A model generated the notes under the pieces. That model was not told the DNA's origin. It was given only the letters and a program-made list of their open reading frames with translations, and did no database searches. From contig NW_026889764.1 in assembly GCF_033153115.1 (NCBI RefSeq), positions 1,612,001 to 1,676,000 of the forward strand: a stretch of DNA of 64,000 bases, written 5' to 3'. Source of the stretch: Saccostrea echinata (lineage: Eukaryota). Shown in pieces: positions 150 through 64,000 of the stretch. The first letter of the stretch is position 1; each line of letters opens with the position of its first letter. A program made the position numbers and the translations under genes.

Positions 150-1700
150 AAGCTAATGAACATTGATCATGCTCAGAAGTCCACTTAAACAATACAAATT
201 GTGAAAAGAGCCAATGCAGACCTCTGAAAACCAAGTGGGATCAGGTGCCATAGAGGAAAAAGCAAACCCTGTCGACTGGTCACACCCGGCGTACGGTCTG
301 CTACGTAGTACATTCGAGCTTGTTTTTCCGCCACCTCAGCTGCATTGCATTAACTGTTAGATAGTAACCTGTCTCCGCTTAAAAATTGATTGTACTCAGA
401 ACATGCTCTTGCTTACAAAATCATTTGGGAGAAATGAACACCATATGTAGTTGACAGTGTAATCAGTTGGGAGACATGAAAACCATATGTAGCTGATAAT
501 GGAATATTATTGCATAAATAGATGAAGTTGATGATGGAAAAATTGAAGTCATCCCCTACATAGTTTAGTGAATAGTTGGCATTTAACCTCTAAAGTCATT
601 AAATCATCCAAGTATAGAACAGATGTAGCAGATTCTTAATTTTGATGTTTTTTTATTTTTATGATATATCGATCCACTATGAATGGAAAAAAAGATAAAA
701 CGTCGTGTAGAATTGAAGGTCACTACGAGAGTTTTCATGGAGAAGGTTCGGCTAATACTAGTAAAGGAACACAATCAGTGCCAGTCAAAATTCCAACATC
801 TCAAGATTGTTTGAAGACCTGGCTCCGGGGCCATAAAACTGAGACGAGCTTACTTTTGATCTCAGTCTCACTTTTCCACTATATATTCCTTTTGCAAAAG
901 AGAATAAGATCAAAAGTAAGCGTCTCAGTTTTATGGCCCCGGAGCCTGGTCTCCCAAGACTAAATAGACACTGTAAATGAGGAATTCCAGCTTCTTTTTA
1001 ATATCCACTTCAGAGTATTTATGTGCAGAATTAGGATTATTATTTAGCAAAGTAAGTTTGTAGATGAACAATTACAAGATCTGAAAAGTTTCGAGTTCCG
1101 TTTTTACTGAAGAAGCAGTTGTCTGATATCAAAAGTGCGGGTCATTCATTCATCGTGAAGAACGATGATATAAAGTGTAGAAAAGTCGTATGTCATGATT
1201 ATATAAATTTTGGATACAAATGTGATTTTAAATATTTAAGTTCTTTAGGATTTTGAGAATCAAAATTTTGTTTAAATGCGGTCTTGAAAATGTTGTAGTC
1301 AATACGCTTGCAGTCTCTCCCTCATAGCAGTTGATATATTAGGGGCTTGGTAGAAATATTCCTAGATATTCTGTTTATCTTTGTAAGGGTTACTAAGAAA
1401 TGATGGAATTCAGTATACGTATGGCAAATCTATGGCAAATCTAATTCACCTCTCTTTACTGGAATATTAGTATTTAAAAATGAAATGTGATATTGCAGAA
1501 TCTAAATCTGTGGGTATAAGATGGATTACCAGATATGGAATTAAAGCTAAGATCTTCTAAAATACAATTGTAATAATGAGCATTACAAACGAAGACAACA
1601 TTGTTACAAACTTTTTTCAGCTGGAATCATAATATACAGTATAGTATTTCCGATTCTTTAATCATTTCCAGTCTACTTAAAACGGTAGGATAGTTGGAGC
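150..1700 (-). mobile_element. Degenerate Penelope-like element (Naiad-type) reverse-transcriptase remnant, interrupted by a MITE
   Basis: The minus strand shows decayed RT motifs: TYDFSTLY at 1170-1193, a VFKQS..VGI.TGTDCVPLL-like segment (~745-820) and a DFNFSIINF-like segment (~520-555). The shared 3' module lies at ~160-292. Boundaries are approximate. Confidence 0.75.
821..946. mobile_element. Foldback MITE with ~40-bp near-perfect inverted arms
   Basis: GGCTCCGGGGCCATAAAACTGAGACG(AG)CTTACTTTTGATCT is mirrored by AGATCAAAAGTAAGCGTCTCAGTTTTATGGCCCCGGAGCC. It sits inside the RT remnant. Confidence 0.75.
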
Positions 1701-1879: not shown

Positions 1880-2066
1880 TGAAAATTTTTACCCAATCAT
1901 GACAAGGAGCACAGGGCGGGTGTGACCGGTCGGCAGGGGATGCTCACTCCTCTATGGCACCTGATCCCACCTCTAAATGTTGAGGTCCGTGTCTGTTCTG
2001 CTCCAAAATTTGTATCGTTTCATTGGACTTTCGAGATTGAATACTGTTCGTTATCTTCATATTTCA
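1880..2066 (+). mobile_element. Penelope-like element 3' terminal module, inverted relative to the 150-1700 copy
   Basis: CATGACAAGGAGCACAGGGCGGGTGTGACCGGTCGGCAGGGGATGC...GTTCGTTATCTTCATATTTC matches the sequence following the RT stop in the 63305-64000 copy. Confidence 0.8.
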
Positions 2067-2175: not shown

Positions 2176-3502
2176 ATTAAACACAATGTTTGACTTCGTC
2201 TATCGCTGCACGGCAGGAATGGTTCCGACGTCGTTATGACGTTTCTTTTCAGCACTCATTTTTCAGTTTAATCGCTTATCTTTTTAACTTCTCACATGCT
2301 TTTTTTTAAAGTTTGAGATGCAGTACTAAAAGTATTTGAACTTTGTCCAAATATTTCGAAATTCATTCCTTCTTGCGTAAATCTTAAGAATCATCAGATT
2401 CAAAACGATATATATATATATATCTGTTTGTGTGTTGTATAAAGATTAACCAGCAGGACAAAGTTCTAAGGAAAGCAACATTTTTGAATTTAAAAAAGTA
2501 ATGTACATGTAGATTAAAACAAAAGAAGTATACCAGTCTGCGAGTATATCTGTCACGTCAGCTGTTGTTAATTCTTTATCACGCAGCAAATGCTTTAACA
2601 TCAAACATGACAAGAGGCTACCATACTGCAATGTATTCAGAAAATATATAAGCTTATTATGACAGGGCGTATAAATACGCATAGCTAATTAAGTATCCTG
2701 CCATGGATTTATTTTTGTATTGAATTAAGTACTGATTGGGTTTCTGATCTGATTACTATATGAGTGATTCATACTGAATATATACGCCTTTTCATTAGAA
2801 AACCCAAAAGTAATTATACTCAGTAGTCTCACTACTTTCCAAGAGGAAAAAATAAGTATTCTACCTTACTTTTTTTTTCTATAATCAAAGTATATGGTTT
2901 CATATTTTCAGGGAAAGGTGGGTGGGGTGGGTACTAAAAACATGAAAAAAGTGTCCAAGAAAAAGACATGCAGGCTTCCACATTATGAAAAATCTCGACC
3001 AGAGGGTTATTACGCATATGCCTCATCCACGATCTACACGACATAACGGGCTGTATTTGAGTGAAAAGAAAGGACAAATCTGAGCAAAAGTTAAATGTAA
3101 TTAACAAGCATCCTGAAATTCATTATGAAATACAAATTAAGTACATTCACTTGATACCTAGTTAGAAAAAAAAATGTGTAAAAAAACTACCGAAAAAGTG
3201 GAGGATGTAAAATTCACAAAAACTCAAATAAAGTAGACATGCATTAATTTTATTTTGAGCTCTTTGAGATATTGAGTTTGCATTTCTATTTCTAATCATT
3301 CCTATCAGAAAAAAGAGGCTTAATTCGTACCATTATATCAAATCCGCATCAGAAACTGTCAAGTCTTCGTTGCAGATACCGAGGAATGCATGATAACTAT
3401 GTCTCGAGGCGTGCTTTTTTAATGATCTGATTTTGAGATGAAGTATTTAAGTCCAAGATATCTAAGAGTCTTTTTCACGTCGTCTCTGACCCCGAAGCAA
3501 AC

Positions 3503-4150
3503 ATGTCGTCTTCAGGCGTTGATACAATGGTCGTTTCTCAGTTTGTTGAAAGCAAAGTCAGAAAATGGTTTCAACTAAATAACCTCAAGCGCAATGGATT
3601 CATAAGTAAACAGGACTATTCAGACATGACGGCTACATTCATCAAAGAGTTTGATTTAGACGAGAAAAAGGCACAAGCCATTCGAAACTGGTTAGAAAAC
3701 GGTTGGGAAATTTTGATTAAGAAAGGAGAAGATATCACAGCGCAAGGTGGCTCGGGTGGAGTGTCACCAGAAAGTGCGCCCAAACTTCTAGAAGTAGGAA
3801 GGAAGATGCGAGAAAATGGCAACATTTCTGAAAACGAGTACATTGCAGCTTTTAAAGAACTTGTTGGCTTCAATAAGAATTTGTTTGTCGAAACCTTTGC
3901 AGGTATGGTAGGGAGCTTTTTTGACGCCTTCGATGTGAACAACACTGGTTATTTAATCAGCGAAAATTTTCAAAAGGGTATGAAGTGTTTTGGAATGACT
4001 AATTCAGAGGCAGTAGACACGATGTTTAAAGCCATGGATACAAAGAAGGAAGGAAAGATCGATAAAGAAACATACGTCGGTCACTGGATCGAATTCATGA
4101 CGGGGGATAACAAGGAAGGGGTGATTGCACAGTTTTTATGCAGAATGTAA
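3503..4150 (+). CDS. Sarcoplasmic calcium-binding protein/calexcitin-like four-EF-hand protein, single exon, 215 aa
   Basis: Typical SCP-family layout: KVRKWFQLNNLKRNGFISKQDY, GNISENEY, FFDAFDVNNTGYL, MFKAMDTKKEGKIDKETY..WIEFMTG. A TATA-like TATTTAA lies at ~3444. Confidence 0.85.
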   Translation: MSSSGVDTMVVSQFVESKVRKWFQLNNLKRNGFISKQDYSDMTATFIKEFDLDEKKAQAIRNWLENGWEILIKKGEDITAQGGSGGVSPESAPKLLEVGRKMRENGNISENEYIAAFKELVGFNKNLFVETFAGMVGSFFDAFDVNNTGYLISENFQKGMKCFGMTNSEAVDTMFKAMDTKKEGKIDKETYVGHWIEFMTGDNKEGVIAQFLCRM

Positions 4151-4982: not shown

Positions 4983-6533
4983 TATAGCTAATGAAAGGCT
5001 GCGCAAAATAATTCATGCTCAACATTTATTCACCGAAACAAAATACAAATACCCTTTGTTTTAACCATTGCCTCCTGATCACACGGACAAATTATTTGGG
5101 ATTCACTCTCATAGTACAGAAGGATGCTACAATTAATAAGTGAACTTCAAGCTGGAAGTCGTTCACGGTAGGAATGAATAGTGTATTGTAAATATTCTCG
5201 TGTTTAATGCTTTTTAACAAAGTTTTGAGAAGACGAGATATCAATTTACAGTCTTGATCTTCTTGCTTTTACTTTGACAATGAATGTCAATCTTGTATGT
5301 ATTTCATAAGAAGAATTGTCTGTTTGCGAATTTTTTACACTTCATATCTTGAAATTAATTGTCTAAGCAAACTTACATATTCATATGCTCCATAATCGTG
5401 GGTTTACATTAATAATCATGGGTGTACATAAGTAATAGTGGGTGTACATTTATAAGTAATATTTTCATGTCATACCTTCGCAATTCCTTTGAATATTTAC
5501 CATATTAAATAAAACACTTTTCTTTTTTTTATACGTTGTTTATTTCAGAACCATTCGAACGCTAATTTAAAAAAATATTCTTTTGACTGTGCTATACATA
5601 CATGTATGATATCGACAGCAATATTATTCTACAATGAGATAACCTGGAATTTATATTTAAATGTACGTTTCATGTTCCTATATCAGGATGCTCAGAAGGT
5701 GCAGAATTTAACCCCCTCAATAAATAAATAAATCAAACAAAAAAAAAAAAAAAAAAAAAAAAAACTGAACAATAATAATAAATAAATAAAATGATTTTTG
5801 CATATTAGCGGATCGAAGAAACCATATTATTACACGAATATTTAATTGACGAATGTATAAAGCTTATAAAAGCAAAACACTTTAAGTAAATAATGTAGTA
5901 AAACCACATCTTTAGCACTAGAATACTACAATTGGGAACGGATTTACAGAAACATAATTTTACATTATATGCATATAGCCTTAAACAAATAAAACCAAAA
6001 TGTAGGTATCTGGCGATGATTTAAATGAAAATATTCGTATGTGTTAATGTGGAAAATGTATGAAGGAAAAAAAATCATTGACTTTCCTTATCTAGTCTGG
6101 AGATTTTTGCACAGTATTGAAAAAATTCAAATCTCTTTTATCAATCAGTACTTATTGCGTATATTAATAGTTAAATTTTGCCAGGCTGTTTTGGAGAACA
6201 AAACTTTTGATGATATCTCATGATTTGTGACTTGTGTCTCCTTTGTAACACGTGATCGTTTTTAAGACACGTTGATTCTCTCAGGTGAATCAATTGATCA
6301 GGATTTCTTGCATAGATGGAAATAAATCGTTCTCTTGGGAATAATCCGGATAATTCCTTGTGCAGTTCTTCACAATACGAATTTTCCCACACGTTTCAAA
6401 TCCCCACACGTTCTATCAATAGCTCTTTACATTCGATGCTTACATTAACGAATCTCAAATTTTATTACATGGATTTTTTAGAGAAAAAAAATTCAGATCA
6501 GTTAACAATAAAGCTTCTCTTCCTCTTTTATGG

Positions 6534-9500
6534 CTAAACATTGGTATCATCACCTTCCTCAATGTTAGATATGAAATACATGGGGTTCTCTTTTGTGACC
6601 CCAGAGTTCTGATCAAACGCTTCATCCATTGTCAGATATTCATCTTTAATGTTAGATTCCTTTATGTGACGAGCATTACTTCTCCTACAATAGGAACACA
6701 GACTCAATTAATAGATCGAGGGCTGTGAATAATTGCAGATTGCTCTTCTTCGAGAAAAGGCTTTATAATTCTTCCAGTATCTCCTTGAATCAAAAATGCA
6801 AGCAAATCTGCCAATAAGGAAATACTTATATATAGACAATTAAAAACGTTACAGATGACATGCCACATTTATTATGCCAAGTGTTGTAACATTTTATCTA
6901 AAAGGTTTTGAAGACAAACAATAGAATCATTTTATTACCTTGGGACCAATTTTCATGAATTGTTCAAACTTTATCAGTAAGAAGAGACGCAATTCAAGAG
7001 CAAAGATTTCGTTATGAAAGGTATTGCTTGTATGTTGACATTTGTCGGGGCTGGTGATGGTTATACATGAAATCCATGAAAATTAAAATCCTTCCGAAAT
7101 ATTTTGATTGTACGACATGTGTTCTTTCAGACCTGTATTATACTTACTTTAATTTTACCACGACAATAATGATGATGACGAGTAAGAGGAAGCCACCTCC
7201 TGCCCCGGCTAGTAGGGGAATATTCTGTTTTATCCAACTCTAAAAGTTTAAATATGTTAAAGGTATGAAAGCCTCTTTACTTCAAGAAATAATAGAAAAC
7301 ACCGGAGTAAAATTCTTAGTTGAAAACATTTATAAAATTATTCAGAAAACTGGGTTCTATCAGACAATTATGATATGAATTATAAGTAATTACTTTAGTT
7401 TTGCTCATATACATTCAATTTGATTGGCTGATACAGACAGAGACACGTTTTGTTTTTAATATAATATATATACTCAAGATATATTACTAAAGTCAGGTAC
7501 TCTTCAAACAATAGCTCTGAAAAAATATAGTTCCATTCATAACCAAGAGATACAACATTCCATTCATAACCAAGACATACAACATTACAACAAATGTAAA
7601 GAATAATGATATGTATGTAACATGTGAAAGAAAACAAAATAAACGTTAAAAGTTTTTTCACCAGAAATGCAAATTAAAAGTGTTCATATTCCTACACTAG
7701 CTGCCTCTTCAGTCTTTTTCACGGAAATATATAGGTCAATCTTCGATTGATAATGATAAATCTTTTCACCAATTATATTACTTTCATGATTATTGTTTGT
7801 TAATTGTCGTACATTTACCTCTAAGAGAGAATGTAATGAAATAAATGGAGATAACGAACAGTATTCATGCTCAAAAGTCCATTAAACATTACAAAATAGG
7901 TGCATAGCAAACACGGACCTCCAAAACATCAGAGGTGGGATCACGTACCATGGAGGAGTGAGCATCCCCTGCCGGCCGGTCACACCCGCCGTGTGCTCCT
8001 TGTCATGATCGGGAAATAACGGAAAAATCCGTCGACAATTCAGTGTGTAAATAATGGCCTAACAATTAATACGAAGAACGTCAGTCAGCATTTGACTCAA
8101 TGATAAATTGTATTTGCTGACAAGGTCATTGTATCGACCAAAGAACTTACGAAATGATGACTTTAAACGAGACAGTTGATATTCTTGTTTCATCAACTTG
8201 TTTGTCAATAATTTACCTCGTTTTAGAAATTGTACATACGTAGAACATGCTCTTGCGTATCGAATCAACTGAGAGATATAAACTCCGTAGGTGATGAAGG
8301 TATTTTGCTGCATAAGTAAGGGAAGTTGACGATCGAAAAGTTAAAGTCATCACGTTTATCATAAAGCTTGGTTGTTAGATTACCATTAACATCTTTTTCA
8401 AGTAAAATATCCAAATATGAAACAGATGTGTCAGACTCTCTGGTATCTTTTAAATCATTAATAATTGTATGTGGTTTTTTAACTTTTTTTTTTTTTTATT
8501 AAATAACGAAATTTTATTATACAACAATCGTAACTTCGCGGCAAAAAAAAGGGTGTTTTTCCGAGCTCGCCGGAAAGGTCTGCAAAGATGCGATTGACAA
8601 TCTCATCGCACGTGTGTAGACCTAGGCTATTTGGTCTTGCAAGCACAGGTGTGTGCACTGTTTGCTAGTGGCGCTTAGATTGGCGACAGTATTTGCTACA
8701 TGTATGGACATGAAGAACTATACAACAGTGCAGTTTCAGAAATCATCTGATCACAGTGAAAATTCGAGTAAATAAAAAGTCGAATATCTTGGATATGGGT
8801 TGTGGCGGTCAGACAGATTCTATCACCGGTGGTGTCAGATAGCTCAGTTGGTAGAGCACCTGACTGGAGATTCAGGGGGCCCGGGTTCGAATCCCGGTCT
8901 GGTCTGCTGCATTTTTCTCCCCTCCCGTTACAGGGGTAACCCATATCTATTCTTGTTTACAATAACTTGTACTTGTATATGGGGACACGAGCGCAAAAGT
9001 TTGTGCTAGTTTTTAAATGGTAATACACGTATTACCAACGTAGAATAAAGCACGTAAAGTAAAATTTAAGCCCCGTTTCTGGATGTCTCTTTAAACAATG
9101 TGACAGTTTACATGCAAATACGCCGGCATATTTCATGAAGCGCGTTAACGCTTCATGATAAATATGCCAGCCTGCAGCGTTTTAGTTCATGTACCTCATG
9201 AATTTTCAAAAATTAAATTCATTTCTTATATTTACATTATTTTTCTGATGATTTGCCACAAATAACGCCATTCAACTGTCATTTTTAAAGCAAAACAGTT
9301 TGTACTATAGTTTTGACGTCAAGTAAGGTATTATGACGTTACAATGGAGATATTGATGTCCATTCATGGAAGTTCATGAGAAAATTAACTGTATTCTATT
9401 TTGTAAAGAATCATGTGGGAAATTTATTGTAAATGTAAATATATATATATATACCTTTTTATTTGCATTATCTTTGGTTTTAAATCTTGCAAGCTCAAAA

Positions 9501-12500
9501 GGAAAAGCTGTTCTCAATTGCTCCGTTGACATCTCTTTCAATTTCATCTCTAGGCGGTCACGTGACAGGGGTTTTCCATCACAAATGACTGGAACTTGAA
9601 AGTCTGTATTTCCATTGCTAATTGAAAAGAAACATTTATAAAGTTTAAGGAATATGTGCATTCATCAAATTTAATGAAAGTTTATACAATTAAAACAAGG
9701 TCTTTCATAACGGTTATAAGTTAGCGTTTTCTGAATGTGTTAGACATAAATACTATATACCGGGTTATTTTCGCCCTTTCACACCGGCAATCAATTTGGC
9801 CCCATTTTGAATTCGCCAAAATTCAGATCTTTTAAGAGATAATGTTGTTTTCTTTGGATTCGTCCGTTTTAAATTCGCCAAATTGCGACGAGGGCGAAGG
9901 GGGCGAAATAAAACGTGGACGAAAATTTCCCAGTATACAGTATATATACTACATAAGCTATTTAGCCTTAGGCGCTAAATAGATTACATAGCTTATAGAT
10001 TACATATTATATTACAAATGTTATATGTTTACAGCATTTTATTTTAATATTTAGAATAGCAATATTCTTCGAACAGAACAGTGTATAATCGACAATTTTT
10101 TTATTCATAATGATGCATATACACATGTATATTAAAAACAACAAATTACGAGAACGTATTGCTTTTTACGATCTTTTAAACATGGAGAATATGCTGCATA
10201 CCAATATGCTGCATTATACCTGTATGATAAGGCATGATCTTTTGACAGTATGCTGACGTCATGACACAAAGAGGTACATATAATCCGTAAGGAGTTTTCT
10301 ATTTTGTTAAGATCTTTATCTGAGATATGTCCAGTAAACTCCAGATTGACCTTCTCCACTCCGATTAATCCTAAAATAATAACAATATACATGTATCTAC
10401 ATATTATATTATAGTACTTTTGAATTTTTCAGTTTCAGTTATTTTTAAAGTTATATAATAATATATTGTCGGAGTTGTGTTATATTGGATATTACAGCGC
10501 TTTAGTAATTTTTTTTTTTCTGCAATGATAACAACTTCTAAACCCCGAATAACACAACAAAGAAAGATAGTTTATTGTTTATATTTATGAAACATGTTCT
10601 TTCTTCATATAAATATTTCCAAGAACGTTGTAGTATTTCTTTGCAAATGATTGATCCTCCCCCCCCCTTTTTTTTAACCCTACCCCGTTCTCGAATTGGA
10701 GGGGGATCGAATAATTTTGAAAGAACGTAGAAACATGACGACTTTTGTTACCGATTGAAAAGAAAATAAAGTTCAATATAAACTTTGAACTCTTTCTTAT
10801 GCCTCCATCATTGTTCTTGGGGTCCATAATTTGAATAAACGTGATAGTGGCAAAAATATGAGGATGCCTGTGTATGTAATTTGTCCATATGAGCACATGG
10901 TATTCGAGCAGATCTGAAAGATTTCTTTCTGGATTATGGAACAGTTAAATTTTCACAACATTTAAGATATTTGCATTGAAAATTGAAACAAATGCGGCTT
11001 AGCATCTCTTAAGAAGATTTTGAATTTTCCTCCCTCTAATTGATTTCTCTAGATGAAACTTTGAACTCTCTTCTTAAACAATCCAGAAGAAGTTTAAGAT
11101 ATCATGTGTTACTTTTAAATGTTTGACAATTGTAGAAAGAAAAATATTTGACTAAATATTAGGAAGAAATTTTAAATATTGATTTTTTAGTGTAATAATT
11201 CACACGACCTGTTAATGCAACCTTCCATAATGCACTAACATTGGACAAGGTAAAGCAGCTTTCAAATATACCTATTCAACTTAACTTCGTAAACTATTGA
11301 ATAAAAATAAATAGGATGCATGCCTACTGTGGGTTTTCCATTCAATATTTCACAAGTTCTGCCTGAATGTCCTTCCCGGCAATTACATGTAAATGACCCC
11401 TCAGTGTTGACGCATATTCCGAATCCGGAGCATTTTTGTTGTTCGCATTCATCTATATCCTCATCGCATTCAACGCTTTTCCATCCATCTAAACATTCAC
11501 ATTGGAATGATCCCTGCAAATTCCGACAGGATTTCATATGTTTACACCGGTTTTCCTCACATTCGTTTACGTCATCATTACATTGTCGTCCTCTCCATCC
11601 ATGTAGACAGCTACAGTTATATCCACCAGCAAAATTACGACACGTCGATCCGTGGAAACAAACATCGTTGTTGCATTCATCAACGTCATTCTCACAACGT
11701 TTACCTGTCCAAGAGGAAGGACAATTACAGTGAGCACTACCACGGGTATCAATGCAAGTTCCACCATGTTCACAGGAGAGAATATTGTTTTCGCATTCCT
11801 TTATATCTTCTGTACACGCTGTGCCACCCCAACCTGGTTTGCAGTGGCAAGAATAACTACCATCAGTATTAGTGCAGTTATAACTATTTATTGTCGAACA
11901 AAAGCTAGAAAACTCACACTCGTTAAGGTCTCTATCGCATGCTTCACCAACCCAACCTTTCTGACAAGTGCAACTGAATGACCCTGGAGAGTTAATGCAT
12001 TGAGAGGCATGTTTGCAGTCTCCTGTTGAGCATTCATTTACGTCTTCCTCACATGAAGGACCTGTCCAATATGGAGGACAGATACAATTATAGCTACCGA
12101 TATTATCTACGCATGTTCCTCCATTACTACAGACTTCAATTTTACACTCATCAACATTTATGTCGCATTCCATACCAGTCCATCCAGGAAAACATTCACA
12201 CTGAAATCCTCCAACAATATTTGTACAGTTTCCTTTATTATTGCATATATTTTGTAAACATTCATTCACATCATGTGCACATGTAGTACCTGTCCAGTTT
12301 GGGGGACATATACAGGAGAAGGAACCGAGAGTATTTTGACAAGTACCGCCATTGAGGCAGGCGTCATTGCGAAGGCATTCATTAACATCCGCCTGACACC
12401 GATCTCCTTGATACCCAGAATTACACACGCATTGGAAGCTTCCGGCCGAATTTGAACAGTTACCATTATCATTGCAAATGTTTGGCTTCAAACATTCATT

Positions 12501-24607: not shown

Positions 24608-27600
24608 TACAGAGAGTAACACTGTTCTATACTTTTATACGCCTTTTCAAAAAATGACATCATCAGCTGATCTTATACTATTGCAATTATTGCAAGAGCC
24701 ACTAATGCCATTTACTTGTTTGATATTTCAGACAAAAAAATATTATACAGTGCATCCGTATTTTTGTAGCTAGCTGGTGCGTCGTACATGGAGGTCCATG
24801 AAGCAGGTGGAGGCATTCATTTCACCGTGGAAAAGACAAGAAATGCATCCCAAGATGAATTGTATGTCAGCTTTAGCAAACGCCTTTATGATATGTTATC
24901 TACCGGAACCACGTGCGTTGAGTGTAAGAGTGGATACGGACTCGATACAGAAAGTGAAATAAAAATGCTGGAAGTGATTGAAACTGCCAAACGAGAACAT
25001 CCACTGACGATATCATCTACTTTCTGTGGCGCTCATGCTATTCCAAAGTATGGTTGTAACTCTATATCTTTCTTTTGTAAAGGGAATCTTAAAAAAGTAG
25101 ATAATGCAAAGAAATTTTAAAAAGAATTTGGCTTTCTAATGCTCTCTAATTTATGTTTTTAAACAAGTTCAATATTCTAGAGGGTCCACTGCGGAAAAAG
25201 CAACAGATGACGTCATAAATAAACAACTTCCTGCCATAACCAATCTCATGAAAGATGGGAAACTTCATGTCGATAATATAGACGTCTTTTGTGAGAAGGG
25301 AGTGTTCGATTTAGAACAGTCGCGAGCTATATTGAAGGCAGGAAAAGAGGCGGGTTTGAACATCAATTTTCATGGTGATGAGTTACATCCACTAGGTGGT
25401 GCTGAGGTAATGATTTGGCTGTAAATAAGATACTTACAGATTAGTATTCCATAGTGATCTTCTTTAGTCCGGATTAATTAGGTACTAATTTTACCTTCCT
25501 TTTTCAATACGTGAACATTGAATTATTTATAAATAATAGAGTCTGATCACTATTACGCTTTGTAATAGGATCATTAGCCATATTTAGAATAGCACTTAAT
25601 TAAAGATCTTTCTTACATGTTAAAACAGATGTTTTAAGGAATATGATGCTGTGTAATTTACTAGTATGCAATACCATAATGTTTACTCGTATGCAGTACC
25701 ATAGTGGAGTGAAATAAACTGAGATCATATGTTTCAATATGCTATACATGAACTTTTAGATGGGGGCAGAACTAGGTGCCCTCGCAATCAGTCATTTGGA
25801 GGAGATATCGGACAAGGGGATCGCCACCATGGCCAAATCTGGGTCAGTGGGCGTGGTCCTCCCCACGACAGCCTATATCCTGAGACTGAAACCTCCACCT
25901 GTCATGAAAATGATCGAAGCCGGAATGGCGGTAGCGCTAGGTTCAGATTTCAACCCAAATGCTTTCTGTATGGCAATGGTAAAATTCTTTCAAAATTTTA
26001 CTCTATAAAATGATAAACTTGCCCTGAAGGGAACAAAAGAAATATGTATGAAATTAAGAAAACAAATCAAGTGTACATGTTTTTTAGGGCAAGAATTATT
26101 TAACTACATGTACATGTAACTATTTTTTGGAATTTGATCTATACCGATGTTTAGAACTATCTTTGACTAAATACTCTACAAATGGGTGAGTGGGGGACAT
26201 TATGTAAATTTGAATTGAATTTCTTTTAAGTACAGCTGTACATGCGTTAATATTACCGAATAATTAACGTCCATTCTAAATTTATAATTGGTACATTTTA
26301 ACATTTACAATTAATTTCTGATAACTTAAAGTGAATACATACATCAATATCTTGTGCTAATTTGTTATTTTATGACCACATTAACTTGCGGACATTCTAT
26401 ACAGTGCTGAAAACGTGACGATCCTTTGATACGGAATGAAACTTAGCTCGCTTTTCTTTAGAACTTGGTAGATTAATTTGTCTTTCGCGTTCATTTTATT
26501 CTTCAGCCGACAGTAATGCATCTTGCTTGCGTGCTATTGCGGATGACGATGTCAGAAGCTTTAATTGCCGCCACCCTTAATGCAGCATCCGCTGTTGGCT
26601 TATCTAAAGATTATGGATCACTGTCACCAGGAAAATACGCTGATATGGTCATTATTGATGCGCAAAGGTTAGAAATATTATATTTATTAATCAATGGGAA
26701 TACGAATGAAATTTACAGAAGCAGCTTTGCTATCATCAGAATCTGGGTTGATATGTTTTGCATTGTAAATGATTGTAACAAGACATTATAGCATACTTAA
26801 GATTGAATGTGAAGATAAAAACAAGCTCCGAAATCCAGTGAAACAATACAGATTTGGAGCAGAGCAAACACGGATCTCTGAAAACATCAGAGGTGGGATC
26901 AGGTGCCATAGAGGAGTAAACATCCCAACATCCCCTGTCAACCACTTATACCCGCCGTGTGCCCTTTGTCATGATCAGACAAACGAAGAAGTATGAAAAT
27001 AATAAAAGACGTCAGTCAATACTCGACCTAACGGCAGATTGTATTTGCAAATAGTCATATTGTGTCGACCTTAGAATTTGCTAAATGTTGCCTTTAACAT
27101 GAGAAGAAAACATTTCCTGTTCAATATATCGACGAGGTATTATCAATTAACAATTGTTACTTCCATCCACTTGTCGATTCAATATATATCCAAGTGAACT
27201 CGAAATGAAAGACACCACAGAGTCTGTCACATCTGTTTCATCATATTTTGATATTTTACTGATTATAGACGTTAAGGGCCAATTAACAACTAAACTGTAT
27301 GACAAACGAGATGACTTCAGCTTTTTCATCGTCAACTTTCCATATTTATATCCAACATCATCTGCATATGGAGTTTATCTCTCCCAACTGATTCGATACT
27401 CAAAAGCATGCTCTAGGTATGATCAAATTTTAAACCGGTGCAGGTTTCTGACAGATAAGTTACAGGGATTTCAACAACCTTGTTTAAAGTCAGCATTTCG
27501 TAAATTCTATGGTCGTTATAATCACCGTGTAGCAAATATAACCTATCATGGAGTCGTATTTTGACTGACTGATATATTAGGTCTTAGTTTTTATATGAAA

Positions 27601-27929
27601 CTTTGCTAAGGAATATTCAGACTACCAGATAAATACATAGGGCTCACGGCGGGTGTGACCGATCGGCAGGACCTAGGCACCTGATCTCACCTCTGGAACT
27701 TCTAGGTGTCCGTGTTTTATGCCCCGTTCACAGATTTGTATTGTTCGTAGCATTTTTTCTCTTTTAGGTCGATCACGGTTCGTTATCTTCATCATTTTCA
27801 CTTGAAACAAGATTGGTTTTTTTTAGGTGGGAGCATTTGATCTACCAGTTTGGAAATCACGATAAAATCATAGAATACGTCATCAAGGAGGGAGACATCC
27901 TTCACACAAAATATGAATGTTGTGGATAG
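21300..27929 (+). CDS. AMDHD1: Imidazolonepropionase (HutI), amidohydrolase domain-containing 1
   Basis: Phase-consistent GT-AG exons: 21300-21451, 21780-21957, 24770-25047, 25181-25406, 25760-25978, 26507-26667, 27827-27929. Motifs: [70 protein letters not shown] at ~28009. Confidence 0.95.
22069..24607 (+). mobile_element. Helentron-type non-autonomous element carrying a ~168-bp satellite array (oyster Cg170-like)
   Basis: 5' ACAAGAGGCCCAAGGGCCTTAACGGTCACCTGAGT; tandem monomers containing GAGCCCCGCCCTAACACCAGAACCCCTGACCCTGGGGCCATGAA spaced ~168 bp; (GACG)n; 3' palindrome AGGTCACCTGAGTGACTCAGGTGACCT. Lies in AMDHD1 intron 2. Confidence 0.85.
26800..27110 (-). mobile_element. Penelope-like 3' module, inverted arm
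   Basis: GCAAACACGGATCTCTGAAAACATCAGAGGTGGGATCAGGTGCC...CCCGCCGTGTGCCC. Confidence 0.8.
27130..27800 (+). mobile_element. Penelope-like (Naiad-type) RT C-terminal fragment plus 3' module
   Basis: [53 protein letters not shown]. Confidence 0.9.
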
Positions 27930-29614: not shown

Positions 29615-40032
<10,418 letters not shown>

Positions 40033-40299
40033 TGTCTCTTGTATTATTGCTAGCTGGAATTACAAAATTCGAGGAAATTCGAATAGTAAATAAGATTTTG
40101 CACAGTACATACAATATTTTGCAGTTGGTAAATAAATAAAAGATTTTACAAGTAATAAAAAAAAGATCCGTGCAAAGGAGTATTTCTTTCTGAACTAAAA
40201 GATGACAACAAAATAAAATTAACGCATACATTTATAACCTGTCAACAATCTTCAAAGGCTACAAGTATCCCTCTCAGGCCTCTCTGTTTACAATATCCG

Positions 40300-40393
40300 T
40301 GGCAACAATCCACTCGGAACACCTCGCACCCTTTCAGTCTTTACTTCCGTTTGTGGATGAGTAGAAGTCGAGCCCGGAATCAAAGGAAAGGAA
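40300..40393. promoter_or_regulatory. Compact bidirectional promoter between CFAP100 and RPP30
   Basis: The ATGs are 361 bp apart, head to head. ETS-type motifs ACTTCCG (~40343) and CCGGAA (~40374). Confidence 0.5.
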
Positions 40394-43300
40394 ATGTCGT
40401 ATGCTGACTTGAGTGTGCAGATTTGTGACAGGAAAATATTGCTGGAAAAGATTGGACTAGCAATAAAACGTAAATATATCTTTGTTTCTCTCTCCATTGC
40501 CATAAAAATTAAAATGTTACAGGAACGAAGTTGGCGGTGCTTTTTCCCACGTGTTTACAATTACAGTATCTTGATCCCGTTTGGAATATAATATTTTAAA
40601 TTTGTATATTTTAGTTGGATATGAAGTTATTGCAGTAGATATTGTACACACACCCTCAAAAAATGTTATGAAGAAAAAGAAAAAGCAGAAAGACCAGGTA
40701 TGTATTTTGATAAGAATCGTGTCTAATAAAATTTTTTAGAAGTGCTGATTCAGAATAGTCAGGACATGATCCACAGTTGGATGGAGTACATCCTAACTCT
40801 TGGCTTTGTGTTAGCATACCTCAATGATAATTTTATTGGTACTCTCTTAAGCATAGGAGTTTTGGTCTATTTTTTAGAGTGTCATTTTTATGCAATATTA
40901 TAGGCTGGTGATGGAGTGATGAAAGCTTGTACATTAAAACTTACAGATGAAGAATTAAAAAGTCTCCAAGTAGGTATAAGCACATAGATCTACAGCATAA
41001 TATGTCATACATGTACATTTCAACTATGATGTCAGATTTATTTTGCACTGGAAATGGAGCATAGCTTTTTTTTTTACAGGTTGACACCAAACGTGTTAAG
41101 ATTCTGAGCCGAGTGACCTTGAACGTTTCTGACAGTGACCAGTTGCAGTATTTGGTAATAAACAATTGTGACATGAACTCAGATGTTACATACATTAAAC
41201 ATCATACATCATATTTATAAATTCAACAGAGCTTTAGCCATGTTTGTCTTTAATTTTAATTGTTTTTGTGGAAAATAACTTTTTTTCAAGTTCCAATTTA
41301 TGTACTTAATATACTTGAAAGTACCCCCACAAAGAAGATTCTGTAATTCATTCTAAGTAAACCTTGTGATATACTGAGGCAGTTGGTCATTTAACTACTT
41401 TCTACACTACCAAACAGGCTCATAGGAAGCTCTTTCAGTTGGGGGGGGGGGGTAAACATTTTCAGGTTGGGGGGGGAGGGGGCACTACCAAAACAAGAAC
41501 ACCTTGATGAGCTGAAAAAAGGTCATCAGTCATAATTATTGAGGGAGTACATCTATATTAAAGTAACTTTGATTTCTATAGTATACTATATATCTGACCC
41601 GCCTTATGATATCCAGAGGGAATAAAACCAGGATTTTTACATGTTTTATTCAGAACACTTTATAGGTTGCTGAAACTTAGGGTCACAAAAACCTCCAAAA
41701 TTTCTGAAGTACAGTATGTTAAGGTTTCAGCAACTGTCTGTGAATATTGTTAGCAATATAGCACAGTATACAATGTAAAACAACAGCAAAATTACTTAAC
41801 GAACATGCTATATATGTAACCTGATTGGACTTATTGTTCTTTAGATGTCTCCAGAAGTTCAGGAATATGACATTGTTGCTGTTCGACCAACATCTTCTGA
41901 AATCTTTGCTGTAAGTCCATTTATCACAGACACAATATTGTTACATTTCACATTTGTGTATTACTGCAGTTTGGTTTATACACAGATAAGGTTAAATAAA
42001 AAGTGTTCCACCTAAAAACAAAATGGCATTGAGTGTGATGTAGTCCTTTAATTTTGCCAATTTTTAAATACTAAAATAAATAACTAGGATGATTCAAATA
42101 ATTTTTTTCCAGAAAGCTGCAAAGTATGTCAACTTAGATATAATTCAACTAGAAATGGAGAAAAATACCAAAGTTATAACACCAGGAGGTCTTAGTGAGG
42201 TGAGTACTGTTGTTAGATATAGAGAAAATCAAAAAAGTTATAACACCAGGGCGTCTAAGTGAGGTTAGTACTGTTAGATATAGAGAAAACCAAAAAAGTT
42301 ATAACGCAAGAAGTCTAAGTGAGGTTAGTACTGTTAGATATAGACCTGCCTTATGATATCCAGAGGGAATAAGACCAGGATTTTTACATGTTTTATGCAG
42401 AACAGTTTATAGGTTGCTGAAACTTAGGGTCACAAATTATCATAATTTATGACCATTAAGACACGAATGGATAACCTTGTCATTATGTCGTATGTTTTGG
42501 AGGTCTCTTTATTGGGATTCTGTTTGAGCAGGGCATACAGAAGGGAATCCATTTTGAGATCCAGTATGGTCCTGCCATCAGAGACAGCTCTGTAAAGAGG
42601 TATCTTATCTCCAACTCCCAGCTTCTGGCCAGCTTCAGCAAATCTAAGGTTTGAATATATAACACTAGCAAATATTGGACATGTTTGATAGAAAAGTAAG
42701 GTGCTGGTATTCACATCACCACTTAATTTATGGACTCATGAGTCCTCATGGGGATGGAGAGAATACGTATGAGGGATGCTCAAAAATAATGGGGACTTGT
42801 TGCACAAATAAGAAATTGATGACATAGACACAATCAGAAAGTTACACATACATTGTAATATAACAGAATCTTTATTTATATGCTGAGCTCCAGATAATTT
42901 TTTAGCTCAAAGTATAAGAACTACGCACGCTAACTCTCGATTCCCGCCTACATTTTACACCGATTTCATTCAATACCAATGGCAATTTGGCTGCAAATTC
43001 TTTGTTGAATGCAAAGGACAGTTCAATGGTAATTGACTGATAATTTTAATGCCAGTGTTAAATAGTTAATTACCCCTAATTGCAGCTCTTTAAATAAGGG
43101 GGGTAGATGATATTTTCCATTGAAATCGGGCTTTCAAGCATCAATACATTGTAAAATATTCTTGGATATGAATAAATGTTCCTTAAATCTTTTCTTAAGT
43201 TTTACGCATATAAAATTAAACATATTTTATTAATAAATTACAATGTTTTAGTTGTAAAACCCTTTGAAATTGGTGAAAAATAAGCATTTTTGTAGTTTTT

Positions 43301-43403
43301 TTGTCTGTAAAATTATGTTCCCCCCCCATGAAACACAAAAAGCTTTGGTATGAATTTGTGAAATAACAGTCTATATTACCTGTAAAAAGGAATTTTTGTT
43401 TCA

Positions 43404-43438
<35 letters not shown>

Positions 43439-46400
43439 AGATGTTTTAAAAATATTTTCCGTTTTCCGTTGATTTCTATAGTGAAAAACACAAGTTTTAC
43501 CCAAATTATAGAGTTACCTCTTTTTATTTTCCCATTGAAGTAATGTTTTATGAAAATTCATATAAATATCTATATAAATATGAAAAATCATTCAAATATG
43601 TTAACTTTTGAAAATTGACTTGGAGGTAGGTGGGAGAACAATGCTATCGTTCGCAGTTCTTTACTGCCTGATTTTCAAATCAATGCAGATTTTGCTTTTC
43701 AGCAAAAATAATTAAAGAGTACTCTGAAATCTATTGGTCTTTTGACATATACATGTAATGTGATTTTTAGCTTGTTATCGAAATAAGTGTTTTGAAAGAG
43801 GAATGTAAAAAAAGGACAGTTTCTACATTTATCAATTAGGTTAATGAAATTTTAAAATTTTGTCAGCTTTTAGCTATACATGTAAGTGAGAAACATTTCG
43901 TTTCTTTCACCAGAAAGACCCTATGGTAGGCAAAGTTACTTGTACCACGGGCACACAGAACTCCATTTAAGATTAGGCCTATATCGATCGTAGCAAGAGT
44001 TACGGAGAAAAAAATCTTTCCTTCGGCCAGATTAAATAAATCTTTAGATTTTCATCCCCACCTGCCCCTCTCAAAATGTCTTGCCCCGTTGTTTTCCTTA
44101 TTATTTTTTTTTTGTTATCAAAAATATATATAATGTTTTACTATATAAATTGTTGGTAAAAGTTTTAGAGTTACTCCCCGTTTGCATTTAATGTCAGGTG
44201 GTGCTATTTATAGCACAGGCACACATGGAAAGCAAAAAATTTGGAATTATTTTCATACAATTAATAAACGTCTAGGTTATTCCGTATACGCTTATAAATC
44301 AAAATTACCTTTTGATAAAAATTCAAACACTGAGCTGAATTTACTTCACATAATTAGCTAAATCATACTTGTATCATTCAATCCATCGTACGAAGTACTT
44401 TCGTAGTGTAATGCTTATTTATAATTGCTAATGCGCAATTGTACGCTCTGTTTTAATTTTTAATGCATATTTTGAAAAATTCAATGCATATTTCTGCAAA
44501 TACGCACCTTACCTGGAGCTCTGTATATGGTAAGCAAAACTTTATATCATAATGTTGTAAACTGATATCAATTTGGGTGATTACTTAGGATATATCACAA
44601 AGTGCAGTTAATTCTTCAACATCATGGGATTCATAGAATTATTTTATTTTTAAGATTAATGGATTAGTTTCTCAACATTTTCCCTGAGTGTTTGTTACAC
44701 AATTTGGGTTACCTTATCCACTCGGCATAAACATCCGTTTACCATTTCTGGACCACCTTGAAAATTATGAAACCAGTATAGCATGTTCTAGTTTGTTTTT
44801 AAACCACAAACTGTAGATATTTCTGAAATATTGTTTAACTTCGATCCCTGTCAATTACATTCTTAATAGTCCAGATCAACAATTCATCGATGATCTTCTG
44901 TCCCCTCCCAGATTATCTTTTACTGAGGTTCTATCATCCAAAATTCTCTTTTTGCTATTTGTGGAAAGGTGTTGGTAATGGTTTATTCCATGTTTCATCA
45001 GGAATGTTTTGAGTCTCTGTTGGCTTTTTCTGAGCATTACACATGATTTAATAAAAGTGCACTGCTCCATCAAATCACTTGATATTTGCAGTTGTTTTCA
45101 AAGGAATCACATCAGAGAAAAATCACAAGGTTTCAGATAGTACTTCAAATAATTACTTCAGAAATCTAAATAAATAATCATACAACAATAAAAGGAAACT
45201 TAGAAAATTGTTGAATTATATCGCAAAAAATGGAAATTTTTTGATTAAGTGGTTTTCAAAATTTTTGCTCAATCGGCTTTATTAAAAGGTAAATTTTTTT
45301 TAGGAGATATTGATTAATATAAAATAATTTTACCAAAAATTTAGTGGAACCTTTAAGAAACATATATTTCTGAAAATTCTTTACTATTTGACGTCTGTAT
45401 GGGTATGTACATGTATAATAGCAGAGTCCACATAATTTTTGAACAGCCCTCGCACATGTAAACAAGTTACCACTTAACCCAGGACATGTTAGTAACTTGC
45501 TGGTTTTGTAACACTTTTTTTCTTAAAATATGTAAAAAGGGTGTTTTATTTCAGTTTTTTTTTTAAATTTGAAATTGTGTTAAAATGCAGTTACTTGAAC
45601 ATTACGTACTTTGACTAGATAAAATACAACCATCTTTAATTTCAGAATATCATAATTTCCAGTGGAGCAGAAAGGGTATGCATTTTTTAGAATTAAAATA
45701 AGGATCTGTATTATTCAAATTATGTACATGGATGTACATCAAAGTCATACATGTGATATGTACCGGCGGTAGGCAAAATGTACAGTTTTTTTCGAGCCCA
45801 TTCATCGTGTACCGGCGGGACACCAAAATTCACGGAATATGAAAATTTGTACAGTTTTTTGAATTTCTCGCTAAATGCCGCCATTTTCCTCTCATTCTCA
45901 TTCGCTCGACACTGGAAAACGTCACCTGTGTTTGACACTTGACCTTCTGATAATTGTGTAGTGTACACAAACTGTCGCGTGTGAAGGTGTGAATTTGTGA
46001 ACTGCCAATTGGGATAATTATCTTGCTATAAATCCGTTGGGATAATTATCTTGCTATAAATCTGTATGCCCCTTTAGGTAGCTTTATTTTTAAAGGGGTA
46101 CTTAATTATAACTGTTAATGTTTCGTAACTTGATTGAAAAAAATTAAGCCAACTTCTAAAGTTGATATACACGACTTAATATACTTGAATCTGACCCAGA
46201 TCTCCGTAGGTATAAAATATACGATGTTTATTACCATGATTACCGCTGAAATAAAGGATATATAGTTTTAAGTTTTTATGTACTGAAATTTATGTATGAT
46301 TTTATTTGCTGCTGTTATTTAGAATTGCTGATGTATATATCAGTAATATGAACAAGATGTAAATTGGAGACATTGACTCTCACGTTAATACTATATAAAG

Positions 46401-60357: not shown

Positions 60358-62800
60358 TATAGACAATAGACAATATAGACAATATTTATTTTCCAATCAA
60401 GGGCCCCCAGAGAGGCATGAAAGATACATTAGTAGACAAAGGCAGTACATTATCAATAAGGAGATAAATTTAAAAAAAAAATGTAAAAGTAAAATACATA
60501 CATTGCAAGTTGTTGTGCTTTACAATGTCATATTAAACGATTAGAGAGGTAGTTTCCAAGTTGAAGTAAAACATTCATATTTTCACATGTAATGATCCAA
60601 AAATATTTTTGAGAACTATCTAAGCTATTAAAACTTTTATTATGTTTCTGTGCTTCATTTATAAGTTTGGTTCTTTTTTCTTTGTAAAAAGGACAATCTA
60701 TGGTAAAATGTATTTCATTTTCCACTACATTCAAATGACATTTTTCACATATTCTTTTATCTCTTTCTAGTCCAATATATCTACCAGTTTCAATTTTTAG
60801 CCTGTGAGAAGATATTCGTAATCTGGTTATGCCCCTTCTAAAGTCAAAGTTATTCAGTAATGTTAAATATTCTTCACATTGGAAATTACTCATAAGATTT
60901 ACATAAGAATCCAGTTTTCCAGAAGAACTTTTTTCTTTAGAATTGAACCAAGAGCAAATAAACTTTTTGCGGATTTGATGATTGATGACAATTTTGAATT
61001 TAGATAGACTCAAAGAGGAGGCATTTTTTGATATTTCTAAAATATTCAAAAATTCAAGTATACAAGAGAACCAGGAGTCTCTACTTGTACTAAGTGTTTT
61101 GGAATTGATATAAGCATTGTACAGAAGAGAATTGTTATCAGAATTTTCCAATCTATGCCAATATAATAACATTGATTTTATGATATCAATATAATACGGA
61201 AATCTTTTAAGTTCTGACATTACTGCAAATTTTGCACTTTTCTTATGAACACCCAGTATAAATTTACAAAACTTCAAATGTAGCTTGTCAGGTTCTGAAA
61301 AATTATATACATTGTCAATTGAGATACCATTTCTGAATCGTGATGAATGAGGGCTAAACACACCCCATATTTTGCTGCCATATAACAGTATTGGCTTAAT
61401 TGTATGGTCAAAAATATGTAGACTAGTTTTAACAGGAGGATGAAAAGCTAAAATATCTTTACATAACTTAAAATAAAATTTCAAACCTTTTTTGTACAAT
61501 GCATCTTTAGCCTGCGAAAAAGTACCTGATGCAGTGAAATAAACACCAAGATATTTATAATTAGTAACATTTTCGAGTATACTATTATTCAATAAAAGTT
61601 TATTCTTCAACAATTTACCAGATTTATTAAAAACTAAGACTTTTGTTTTATCAACATTTACACTTAAACACCATTTTTGACAAAATTCATCTAATGTGTT
61701 TAGCTTTTGTTGAAGACCATTGGCTGAGGCTGATAACAGAACAACATCATCAGCATACAATAGACAATGTATTCCTAAATTATTAAGTGTACCAGGGTCC
61801 GGTGTACTAGACAACATATTTGGTAGATCATTAATAAATATTTTAAATAGATTTGGGCTCAGATTGTCCCCTTGTCTTACACCCAGTTGCGTATAGAAAG
61901 GTTTTGTTAAATAATTTCCTATTTGGATATGCGACCTGCTTTTGGAATACATATTTTTTATTAAATTGTAAAAATTACTTCCGACTCCTATTTGTAGAAG
62001 TTTTAACTTTACACAATCATGTAAGACATTGTCAAAAGCTTTACGGAAATCAACAAAACATGCATATAGCTTTCCTCCTTGATGACAATATTTCTCAACA
62101 AGAGATTTCAGAATGAACATATGATCAGATGTTCTACATGCTTTAGAAAAACCAATTTGGTATCTGCTTATGATATTGTTTTCTTCTAAAAATTTGTCCA
62201 ATCTCGAGTTTAAGATGGAGTTGAATAATTTACTTATGTTACTTGTTATTGTGATTCCTCTATAATTTGTAGGGTTACTTGGGTCACCTCCTTTGTGAAG
62301 AGATACCATATATCCATTGATCCAACAACTGGGGTATATACCATAAATAAGGCAGTTATTAAATAATTTTAAAAGACAATGATTAAAAACATGTTGACCA
62401 TATTTTAGCATTTCATTACAAACAAGGTCCAGACCAACAGCTTTATTATTTTTCAGTTTTTTGATAGCTTTAGATAATTCCCCTTCTGTTATCTTCATGT
62501 CCAACTCATTAAAGCACCTAAATTTTTCTAGATCTGCAATTAACTTGCTTTTTGATAATTTGAATACGGTCAGTAAAAGTGTTGTCAATTTTGTTTAATG
62601 AATTAAAGTGATCTAGCCATGTATCTGGGGATATTAAGTCAGCAAGAACTTTAGCGTCTCTATCGTTTCTTAATTTTGATAGCATACCCCAATAAGCTTT
62701 TGGATTATTTTTATGAAGTTCACTTATTTTGTTCAACATATCTGATTTAAATTTCCTTTGTTTATATTTTACAGTTTTAGAGTACTCTTTCAGTAGTCTG
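60358..62800 (-). mobile_element. 5'-truncated non-LTR retrotransposon (RTE-X/CR1-superclade-like) with RT and C-terminal Cys/His knuckle
   Basis: ORF 60528-62588: NYRGITI, YQIGF, FVDFRKAFD, GVRQGDNLSPNLF, LLYADD, YKYLG, RICEKC..ENEIHF..DC. An upstream frameshifted piece (62518-62739, NPKAYW). No APE domain present. 3' tail AATAAA+(ATTGTCT)n. Confidence 0.9.
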
Positions 62801-63304
62801 TATTACCCCACCTCTGATGATTTTTCGATGAAATCCTGGCTTACGATTGGTTGAAGTCTGTCACGTGAAGGGGGTGTATTACTTATACCTAGTCGCTTGA
62901 AAATCAATACATGGTTGATGCGGAGTTATCGTTCTTTTGTAACACTTCGAGCAACTCAAATGCACGAGGTTCGCGGGTATCTGTTGATAAGTAAAAAGTT
63001 AATCAACGTAAGTAACGAGATATAACCTTTTTCTCGCTTTACTGAAAGTCTTCGAAACAGTACTGTCAGTACGTTATGAAACACTCGCAAAACAACATTA
63101 CGTAACACAACGTGACGTCATAATAGGCATTGTATGAGAGATGAAACATATAGCAGAGAAAAACAATTTTACAAGCCACAGACAATACATAAATATTTCA
63201 TCGGTGGGGTAAATTCGTTACATAGTTTTGTAACTATGTAACTAATAATACCTGCCACGTACCTGTGGGATTCTAGGGAAAAAACTGAAGACTGTACTAA
63301 AAGA

Positions 63305-64000
63305 AATATATGGAGATAACGAACAGTATTCAAGCTCAAAAGTCCATTAATCAATACAAAATAGGAGCAGAGCAAACACGGACCTCCAAACATCAGAGGT
63401 GGGACCAGGTGCCATGGAGGAGTGAGCATCCCCTGCCGACCGGTCACACCCGCCGTGTGCTCCTTGTCATGATCGGGAATTAAAGGACAAATCCGTCGAC
63501 AATTCAGTGTGTAAATAATGGCCTAACAATTAGTATGAAAAACGTCAGTCAGCATTTGACTCAATGATAAATTGTATTTGCTGACAAGGTCATTGTATCG
63601 ACCAAAGAACTTACGAAATGATGAATTTAAACGAGACAGCTGATATTCTTGTTTCATCAACTTATTTGTCAAAAATTTACCTCGTTTTAGAAATTGTACA
63701 TACGTAGAGCATGCTCCTGCGTATCGAATCAACTGAGAGATATATACCCCGTATGCAGGTGATGAAGGTATATGGCTGCATAAGTAAGGGAAGTTGACGA
63801 TCGAAAAGTTAAAGTCATCACGTTTATCATAAAGCTTGGTTGTTAGATTACCATTAACGTCTTTTTCAAGTAAAATATCCAAATATGAAACTGATGTGTC
63901 AGACTCTGTGGTATCTTTTATCTCAAGTTCACCAGGATATATCGTATCGACATAAGAATGAAAATAGCCATTGTTGATTGACAATACGTCGTCGATATAT
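63305..64000 (-). mobile_element. Penelope-like (Naiad-type) RT C-terminus plus 3' module; continues beyond the window
   Basis: [59 protein letters not shown]. The ORF stops after the thumb with no C-terminal GIY-YIG. Confidence 0.9.

Follow-up and report, generated by a model that had tools for sequence, protein, structure and literature searches.

The window (the whole stretch of 64 kb analysed here) carries near its end, on the minus strand, the C-terminal part of a Naiad reverse transcriptase (RT) ORF (63523 to 64000 and beyond); this host copy is 5'-truncated and continues for ~775 nt past the window. About 60 nt past the stop codon of the ORF lies a structured RNA module of 93 nt (63370-63462, minus strand, from outer stem to outer stem), followed by the 3' tail of the element (63299-63369, minus strand). 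Loose RNA-read ends and alignment to the full element place the end of element copies at ~63303-63308, some 60-70 nt 3' of the module. An earlier note on this DNA had described a structured module of ~110 nt at about nine places; the structure and its recurrence were borne out, while the length had to be reduced to 93 nt. Exactly nine copies were detected in the window by nhmmer, with the window copy as the query (weakest E-value 6e-8), and the same nine were recovered by a covariance model built from 14 copies.

The other eight copies are located at 196-314 (minus strand; subfamily C, decayed), 1886-2010 (plus), 7893-8019 (minus; subfamily A), 16283-16407 (minus; subfamily B, decayed), 17246-17373 (plus), 26850-26985 (minus; with an 8-nt duplication), 27619-27736 (plus; subfamily B, with an internal deletion) and 59863-59993 (plus; decayed). 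Eight of the nine lie directly 3' of RT remnants on the same strand. The module indeed remains recognisable where the neighbouring RT is decayed, as had been remarked, but this persistence is partly trivial, since 5' truncation retains 3' ends. A sample of 80 unselected stretches of 10 kb from the genome (923 Mb) contained 33 matches to the module and 55 to the wider 3' end, from which ~40,000-60,000 module copies are extrapolated genome-wide.

The window also encodes a LINE-type RT frame of 688 aa (60528-62594, minus strand; RVT_1, E 1e-37), separate from Naiad, an EF-hand protein frame of 237 aa (3437-4150, plus) and an uninterrupted EGF-like repeat frame of 622 aa (11262-13130, minus). A tRNA-like sequence (8833-8905, plus; 51.6 bits in Rfam) is possibly the head of a SINE, and tandem arrays occupy 23014-24321 (unit of ~168 nt), 33204-34118 (~47 nt), 34400-36300 (~27 nt) and 56427-57739 (~165 nt).

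The Naiad host element

The host is a Naiad Penelope-like element (PLE), and the module is located in its 3' UTR/pseudo-LTR. Likeness to published oyster consensus sequences points to an oyster-type genome. The N-terminal GIY-YIG domain and the CxC and DKA motifs expected of such a host were all present. The 5' part of the ORF in two copies, L032 and L046, matched PF01541 (GIY-YIG; E 9e-4 and 5e-3, respectively, both under the curated cut-off), with the RT located 3' of this domain in each. The ORF of a third copy, L035, carries the motifs CSC and DKA; CxC and DKA motifs between EN and RT are Naiad features (PMC8557442). L032 is a full-length copy, in which pseudo-LTRs at 5682-5857 and 8933-9108 each contain a module, 3.25 kb apart. 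L046 likewise has an upstream pseudo-LTR, and L041 an inverted copy, so that the Naiad traits of partial tandems forming pseudo-LTRs, 5' truncation and inverted copies are all encountered here. A group of other loci (L336, L341, L356, L357, L386 and others; 18 of the 200 matches listed) share one and the same junction between unrelated sequence and the module, of which the 3' two thirds are kept; these probably represent another repeat family that carries a Naiad fragment.

Architecture and conservation of the fold

Read in the RT sense, i.e., on the minus strand with descending coordinates, the module begins with the 5' strand of the outer stem P0 (63453-63462), which pairs with 63370-63381 and shows compensatory changes between subfamilies A and B and in a pearl-oyster-type copy, L158 (see below). 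There follow an invariant CGGGUG (63447-63452), a 10-nt palindrome (palindrome 1, 63437-63446), a short linker ending in an invariant CAG (63433-63436), the 5-nt 5' strand of helix P2 (63428-63432), an invariant GCUYAC (63422-63427) and 3-4 further nucleotides. The second half consists of a palindrome of 6-8 nt (palindrome 2, 63412-63417), an invariant CACCYG (63406-63411), the 3' strand of P2 (63401-63405), the hairpin P4 (63382-63400), which is variable in sequence and length and has an A-U closing pair, and the 3' strand of P0 (63370-63381). CGGGUG and CACCYG are complementary and form the two strands of the pseudoknot helix P1.

The outer stem, the hairpin and the GGGAU/AUCCC and GGUG/CACC pairings suggested previously are all present in the sequence, as is the TCAGAG hairpin arm in the copies near 26870 and 220. 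The two last pairings had been described as competing; on the contrary, they are compatible and together make up one pseudoknot. If the two palindromes form duplexes and are counted as helices, each half of the predicted structure would contain a four-way junction (P0, palindrome 1, P2 and P4). Beyond P2, the model places an internal loop, with GCUYAC on one side and CACCYG on the other, and the pseudoknot would join junction and loop.

Within the genome, 179 near-complete 3' ends were collected, which fall mostly into three subfamilies of 73, 67 and 24 members (a sample biased by the queries). Subfamilies A and B are identical at 48 of 53 positions in the core of the module, compared with 40 of 56 in the upstream 3' UTR, 74 of 90 in the last 90 nt of the RT and 42 of 55 in the tail. 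The core is thus better conserved than the upstream UTR, and it is between subfamilies, rather than in survival beside decayed RT, that real constraint is visible. The differences between A and B do not disrupt pairing in the outer stem or the hairpin, and the AU/UA swap between them at the centre of palindrome 2 leaves the hexamer palindromic. In an alignment of 14 sequences, 94% of the cells at the 30 proposed pairs were paired and 11 of the 30 pairs showed two-sided change, counts that are inflated by relatedness, with few divergent rows and many of the two-sided changes contributed by L158. None of 500 shuffles scored as high, and controls in which the pairing was slid gave 30-46%; by this count the fold covaries. 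P4 showed two-sided change at three of its six pairs in alignment A1. Other P2 variants were sought in the same genome, and only decayed copies of the main family were seen among the 100 of 909 matches listed.

A broader comparison was made with the 54 Naiad consensus sequences in the supplement of PMC8557442, of which the 3' ends of 34 were inspected by eye, the families being named by file order. The module was recognised in 12 of these 34, namely in three oysters, an ark clam, a pearl oyster, four hemichordate families, two of Clytia and one of toadfish; the last was assigned by its place in the supplement file and is likely a fish. By these calls the module extends over four phyla, from a hydrozoan to a likely fish. 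In the 12 families, 58 of 60 P2 pairs are intact, and each of the five positions shows two-sided changes. Pairing is complete in both palindromes (G-U allowed), with 60 of 60 pairs in palindrome 1, which occurs as nine different decamers, and 36 of 36 in palindrome 2, which occurs as eight different hexamers. CGGGUG, the CAG, GCUYAC and CACCYG are each found in 12 of 12. P1 itself is invariant and two-sided covariation in it was absent from the 12 families, with a single U-to-C change in CACCYG of one family turning a G-U pair into G-C. These cross-phylum counts, like the twister and hammerhead calls below, were made by eye on consensus sequences and not with R-scape or Infernal.

A general pattern of the module gave 34 matches in prokaryotic and viral collections. 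In 33 of these only about two of five pairs were formed on average, and none of the 33 chance matches completes both palindrome 1 and P2. The remaining one, L158, is a 407-nt Naiad 3' end of pearl-oyster type with every feature of the module; its contig, in a bacterial assembly, is most likely an animal contaminant. A narrow pattern search of metagenomes yielded seven oyster-like copies, and an RT query against viral contigs gave no matches.

No Rfam family matched the module in a scan of the window at E<=1, or in scans of L144 and L158 at E<=5, which answers the comparison with catalogued families that had been proposed; permuted or dimeric forms could evade the models behind these negatives (hatchet, hairpin, glmS, VS and others). 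No paper on the module was found in the literature searched, which excluded subscription journals and bioRxiv supplements, and among six passages of the HRIMA motif alignments (PMC10085705) listed for the core hexamers none has its architecture. This RNA fold is strongly conserved and lies outside the families catalogued so far.

In both palindromes the two central nucleotides are complementary as well, something not called for in a hairpin loop. For palindrome 1, a folding program gave -13 to -17 kcal/mol for the duplex, against ~0 for its own hairpin; palindrome 2 cannot form a hairpin, because the hexamer pairs up to its centre. Intermolecular pairing is therefore the simplest reading. In co-folded homodimers both palindromes were intermolecular in four of four sequences, and the outer stem, CGGGUG/CACCUG and the hairpin were retained in all four (a pseudoknotted P2 is beyond the program). 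Dimerisation brought no unusual gain in energy, 14-30 of 150 shuffles doing as well, and monomer folding energy was no better than that of shuffles (z -0.3 to -2.0). The case for a dimer therefore rests on conservation and not on energy. On the modelled pairing, the RNA likely joins a second copy through both palindromes, and the tolerated G-U pairs argue for function at the RNA level, as they lie on the RT-sense strand. The structure proposed in the earlier note contained no palindromes; it survives as a covarying fold with neither a hammerhead core nor an Rfam match, and the two palindromes that it omitted are likely the key to the mechanism.

An alternative hairpin, formed by the purine strand of P2 and the pyrimidines that follow it, was also considered and was rejected as a general feature. 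It is predicted in the bivalve families, takes a different register elsewhere and is absent in the fish family; it is possibly a folding intermediate.

Relation to self-cleaving ribozymes

Our preferred interpretation, held with some confidence though well short of certainty, is that the module is a self-cleaving ribozyme in the Naiad pseudo-LTR that acts as a dimer and has a fold not yet catalogued. Two pseudo-LTR copies in one tandem transcript would pair through both palindromes, and this pairing would complete the four-way junction and the internal loop, which hold CAG, GCUYAC and CGGGUG/CACCYG. The paired RNA would then cut itself, so that element RNA of unit length, or able to circularise, is freed from read-through transcripts, and lone copies in host mRNAs would remain uncut. 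The Y-A step of GCUYAC (63424/63423) is put forward as a candidate cleavage site; this is a guess from likeness to L1 of twister sister, and one that we would sooner expect to fail than to hold.

The design has a precedent in canonical PLEs. These carry minimal type I hammerheads in both pseudo-LTRs, whose helix III is a palindrome and whose active form, a dimer of tandem copies, cleaves weakly (PMC4209133, PMC6765202). A loop-less palindrome is likewise present in all 12 module families, and two copies per transcription unit in L032. The module differs from these hammerheads in having two palindromes instead of one and in its predicted pseudoknot and four-way junction. The hammerhead core blocks CUGANGA and GAAA are absent by eye from all 12 families, which, together with the lack of an Rfam match, agrees with what had been noted for the window.

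By eye, of the remaining 22 inspected Naiad ends, seven contain a twister-like motif, six a hammerhead-like motif in which GAAA comes first, one to three a hammerhead-like motif in normal order, and six nothing, four of the latter being flagged as incomplete. No inspected end showed two kinds of motif (34 of the 54 consensus sequences, by eye), and three kinds occur among the four families of Clytia. Inferred from position, the module is most likely a third ribozyme, since its place is taken in other Naiads by two ribozyme classes, whose dimer design it has in common. The idea of a substitute self-cleaving RNA, raised in the earlier note, thus gains some indirect backing, from this common location and from the palindromes. 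The wider proposition, that the Naiad pseudo-LTR accommodates three ribozyme types interchangeably, this module among them, stands in our judgement evenly between true and false.

The twister-like motifs (Mgal, Bpla, Mphi, Scon, Mmer, Movir-1 and Chem-4, by eye) are circularly permuted, with palindromes instead of P1. Found in mussel, clam, jellyfish and hydrozoan Naiads, they resemble the module in their 3' position, in the palindromes that replace a helix and in size. The twister core blocks themselves (UAA at L1, the GAGGG strand and the UCCCAAGC-type P4 loop with its T1/T2 pseudoknots) are absent from the module when it is compared with the Rfam twister-P1 consensus, and no Rfam match was obtained. 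The authors of the Naiad study do not mention the twister-like motifs, and the main text of PMC8557442 contains neither 'twister' nor 'palindrom'. That paper reports only a lack of canonical hammerheads, and its supplement marks the module-bearing Naiad-1_Chem as 'HHR_core' without giving a location. GAAA precedes CUGA in the 3' ends of Bfor, Chem-3, Amil, Movir-2, Plae and Obim (by eye), an order described in PMC10085705 as a non-circular permutation; these blocks are possibly type-SGC permuted hammerheads in animal retroelements. A twister-P5 search of the oyster genome itself gave no match, with the control silent too. Two ordinary type-P1 twister-like motifs occur in that genome, at L295:1483-1541 and L293:1483-1534 (Rfam E 8e-9 and 0.45, below the gathering score), and neither adjoins a Naiad RT.

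The HDV fold, which occurs in retrotransposons, is characterised by P1.1, a P4 arm and a catalytic cytosine in J4/2, between the 3' strands of P1 and P2. With P1 5', P2 5', inner region and P1 3' in this order, the module is similar to the first half of HDV. It nevertheless has no P1.1, P4 arm or J4/2 cytosine, there being 0 nt between P1 3' and P2 3' in 12 of 12 families, and the place where cleavage would be expected is enclosed by the outer stem. Pistol (PMC6154101) shares a local pattern of AG, pseudoknot strand and GC (its A32-G33 and G40-C41); the module differs from it in having U at the position of G42, in its connectivity and in lacking both the AAA linker and the G-U cleavage step that pistol has between P3 and P2.

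Cleavage was sought in two kinds of data. No pile-up of read ends within the module was seen in three unstranded oligo-dT RNA runs of one study, probably from a related species, with reads mostly 85-95% alike. Read depth rises from ~2x at the ORF start to ~900x at the 3' end of the element and follows the gradient of genomic copies, so the reads derive mostly from truncated dead copies in host transcripts. In the genome, points of 5' truncation are scattered evenly over the module and do not cluster at the candidate site; scripted lists gave 19 external junctions over +10 to +16 (60 loci) and eight over +20 to +35 (30 loci). An early hint of a peak at the end of palindrome 1, seen by eye, was gone in two further junction lists. 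Both tests have low power, because full-length RNA is scarce and the one PLE reconstituted so far (PMC11167929) took uncut RNA as its template.

A non-catalytic role has also to be weighed, in which the module would dimerise the RNA and load the RT, presenting the internal start site to it and joining two element RNAs or both ends of one, in the manner of a retroviral dimer signal or a telomerase-RNA-like pseudoknot. We consider this improbable, yet the most serious of the rival explanations. It would account for the tandem and inverted insertions, the covariation and both palindromes fit it equally well, copies stop only 60-70 nt 3' of the module, and the failure to detect a cut site in read ends or truncation points is as it would predict. 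In addition, PLE RT, a predicted dimer, starts at an internal site immediately beyond the pseudo-LTR (PMC11167929). In the reconstituted PLE of that study the hammerhead cut only with the protein present, and insertion in vitro did not depend on cleavage, which counts against the ribozyme reading. The region bound by the protein lay at the ORF start and not at the ribozyme, which speaks against an RT-loading role. Moreover, related Naiad RTs use twister-like or hammerhead-like RNAs at the same place, and a swappable activity fits this better than a specific RT ligand.

It is less probable again, and on balance distinctly unlikely, that the module belongs, in heavily rearranged form, to a known class, of which twister sister/TS-like (lantern) is the most plausible. 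Here GCUYAC leaves P2 directly, as does the L1 strand G59-C60-U61-C62-A63 of twister sister, in which position 62 is unconstrained and an A8-to-U change can be accommodated (PMC5660989, PMC11620745); both have a four-way junction at the other end of P2. The opposite strand, however, reads ACCYG where twister sister has GCNAG, and its complementarity to CGGGU is better explained by the predicted pseudoknot, which is foreign to that class. An SL4-type hairpin, which in twister sister docks on L1, is absent from all 12 families, and the window gave no Rfam match to twister sister at E<=1. Function at the level of DNA, with the module as an internal promoter or endonuclease site in the pseudo-LTR and the palindromes as protein sites, appears very improbable. 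PLE pseudo-LTRs do contain promoters and palindromes are typical of DNA sites; these palindromes, in contrast, keep their symmetry and not their sequence and accept G-U pairs, and there is covariation in three separate long-range stems, features for which a double-stranded DNA element would have no need.

Significance for Penelope-like elements

Small self-cleaving RNAs are so far divided into only about a dozen classes, and the addition of one from animal genomes, if true, would be notable in itself. Hammerhead-less Naiads were taken by Craig et al. (2021) as a sign that PLE ribozymes may be dispensable or parasitic. Three interchangeable ribozyme types, if real, would overturn the view of ribozyme-free Naiad transposition, and if most Naiad families carry a dimer-gated ribozyme at this place, RNA processing would be a conserved need of PLE transposition. 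Dimer gating, if true, would also explain how the genome tolerates tens of thousands of transcribed copies. Even without cutting, the module would represent a conserved dimer-forming RNA beside a telomerase-related RT.
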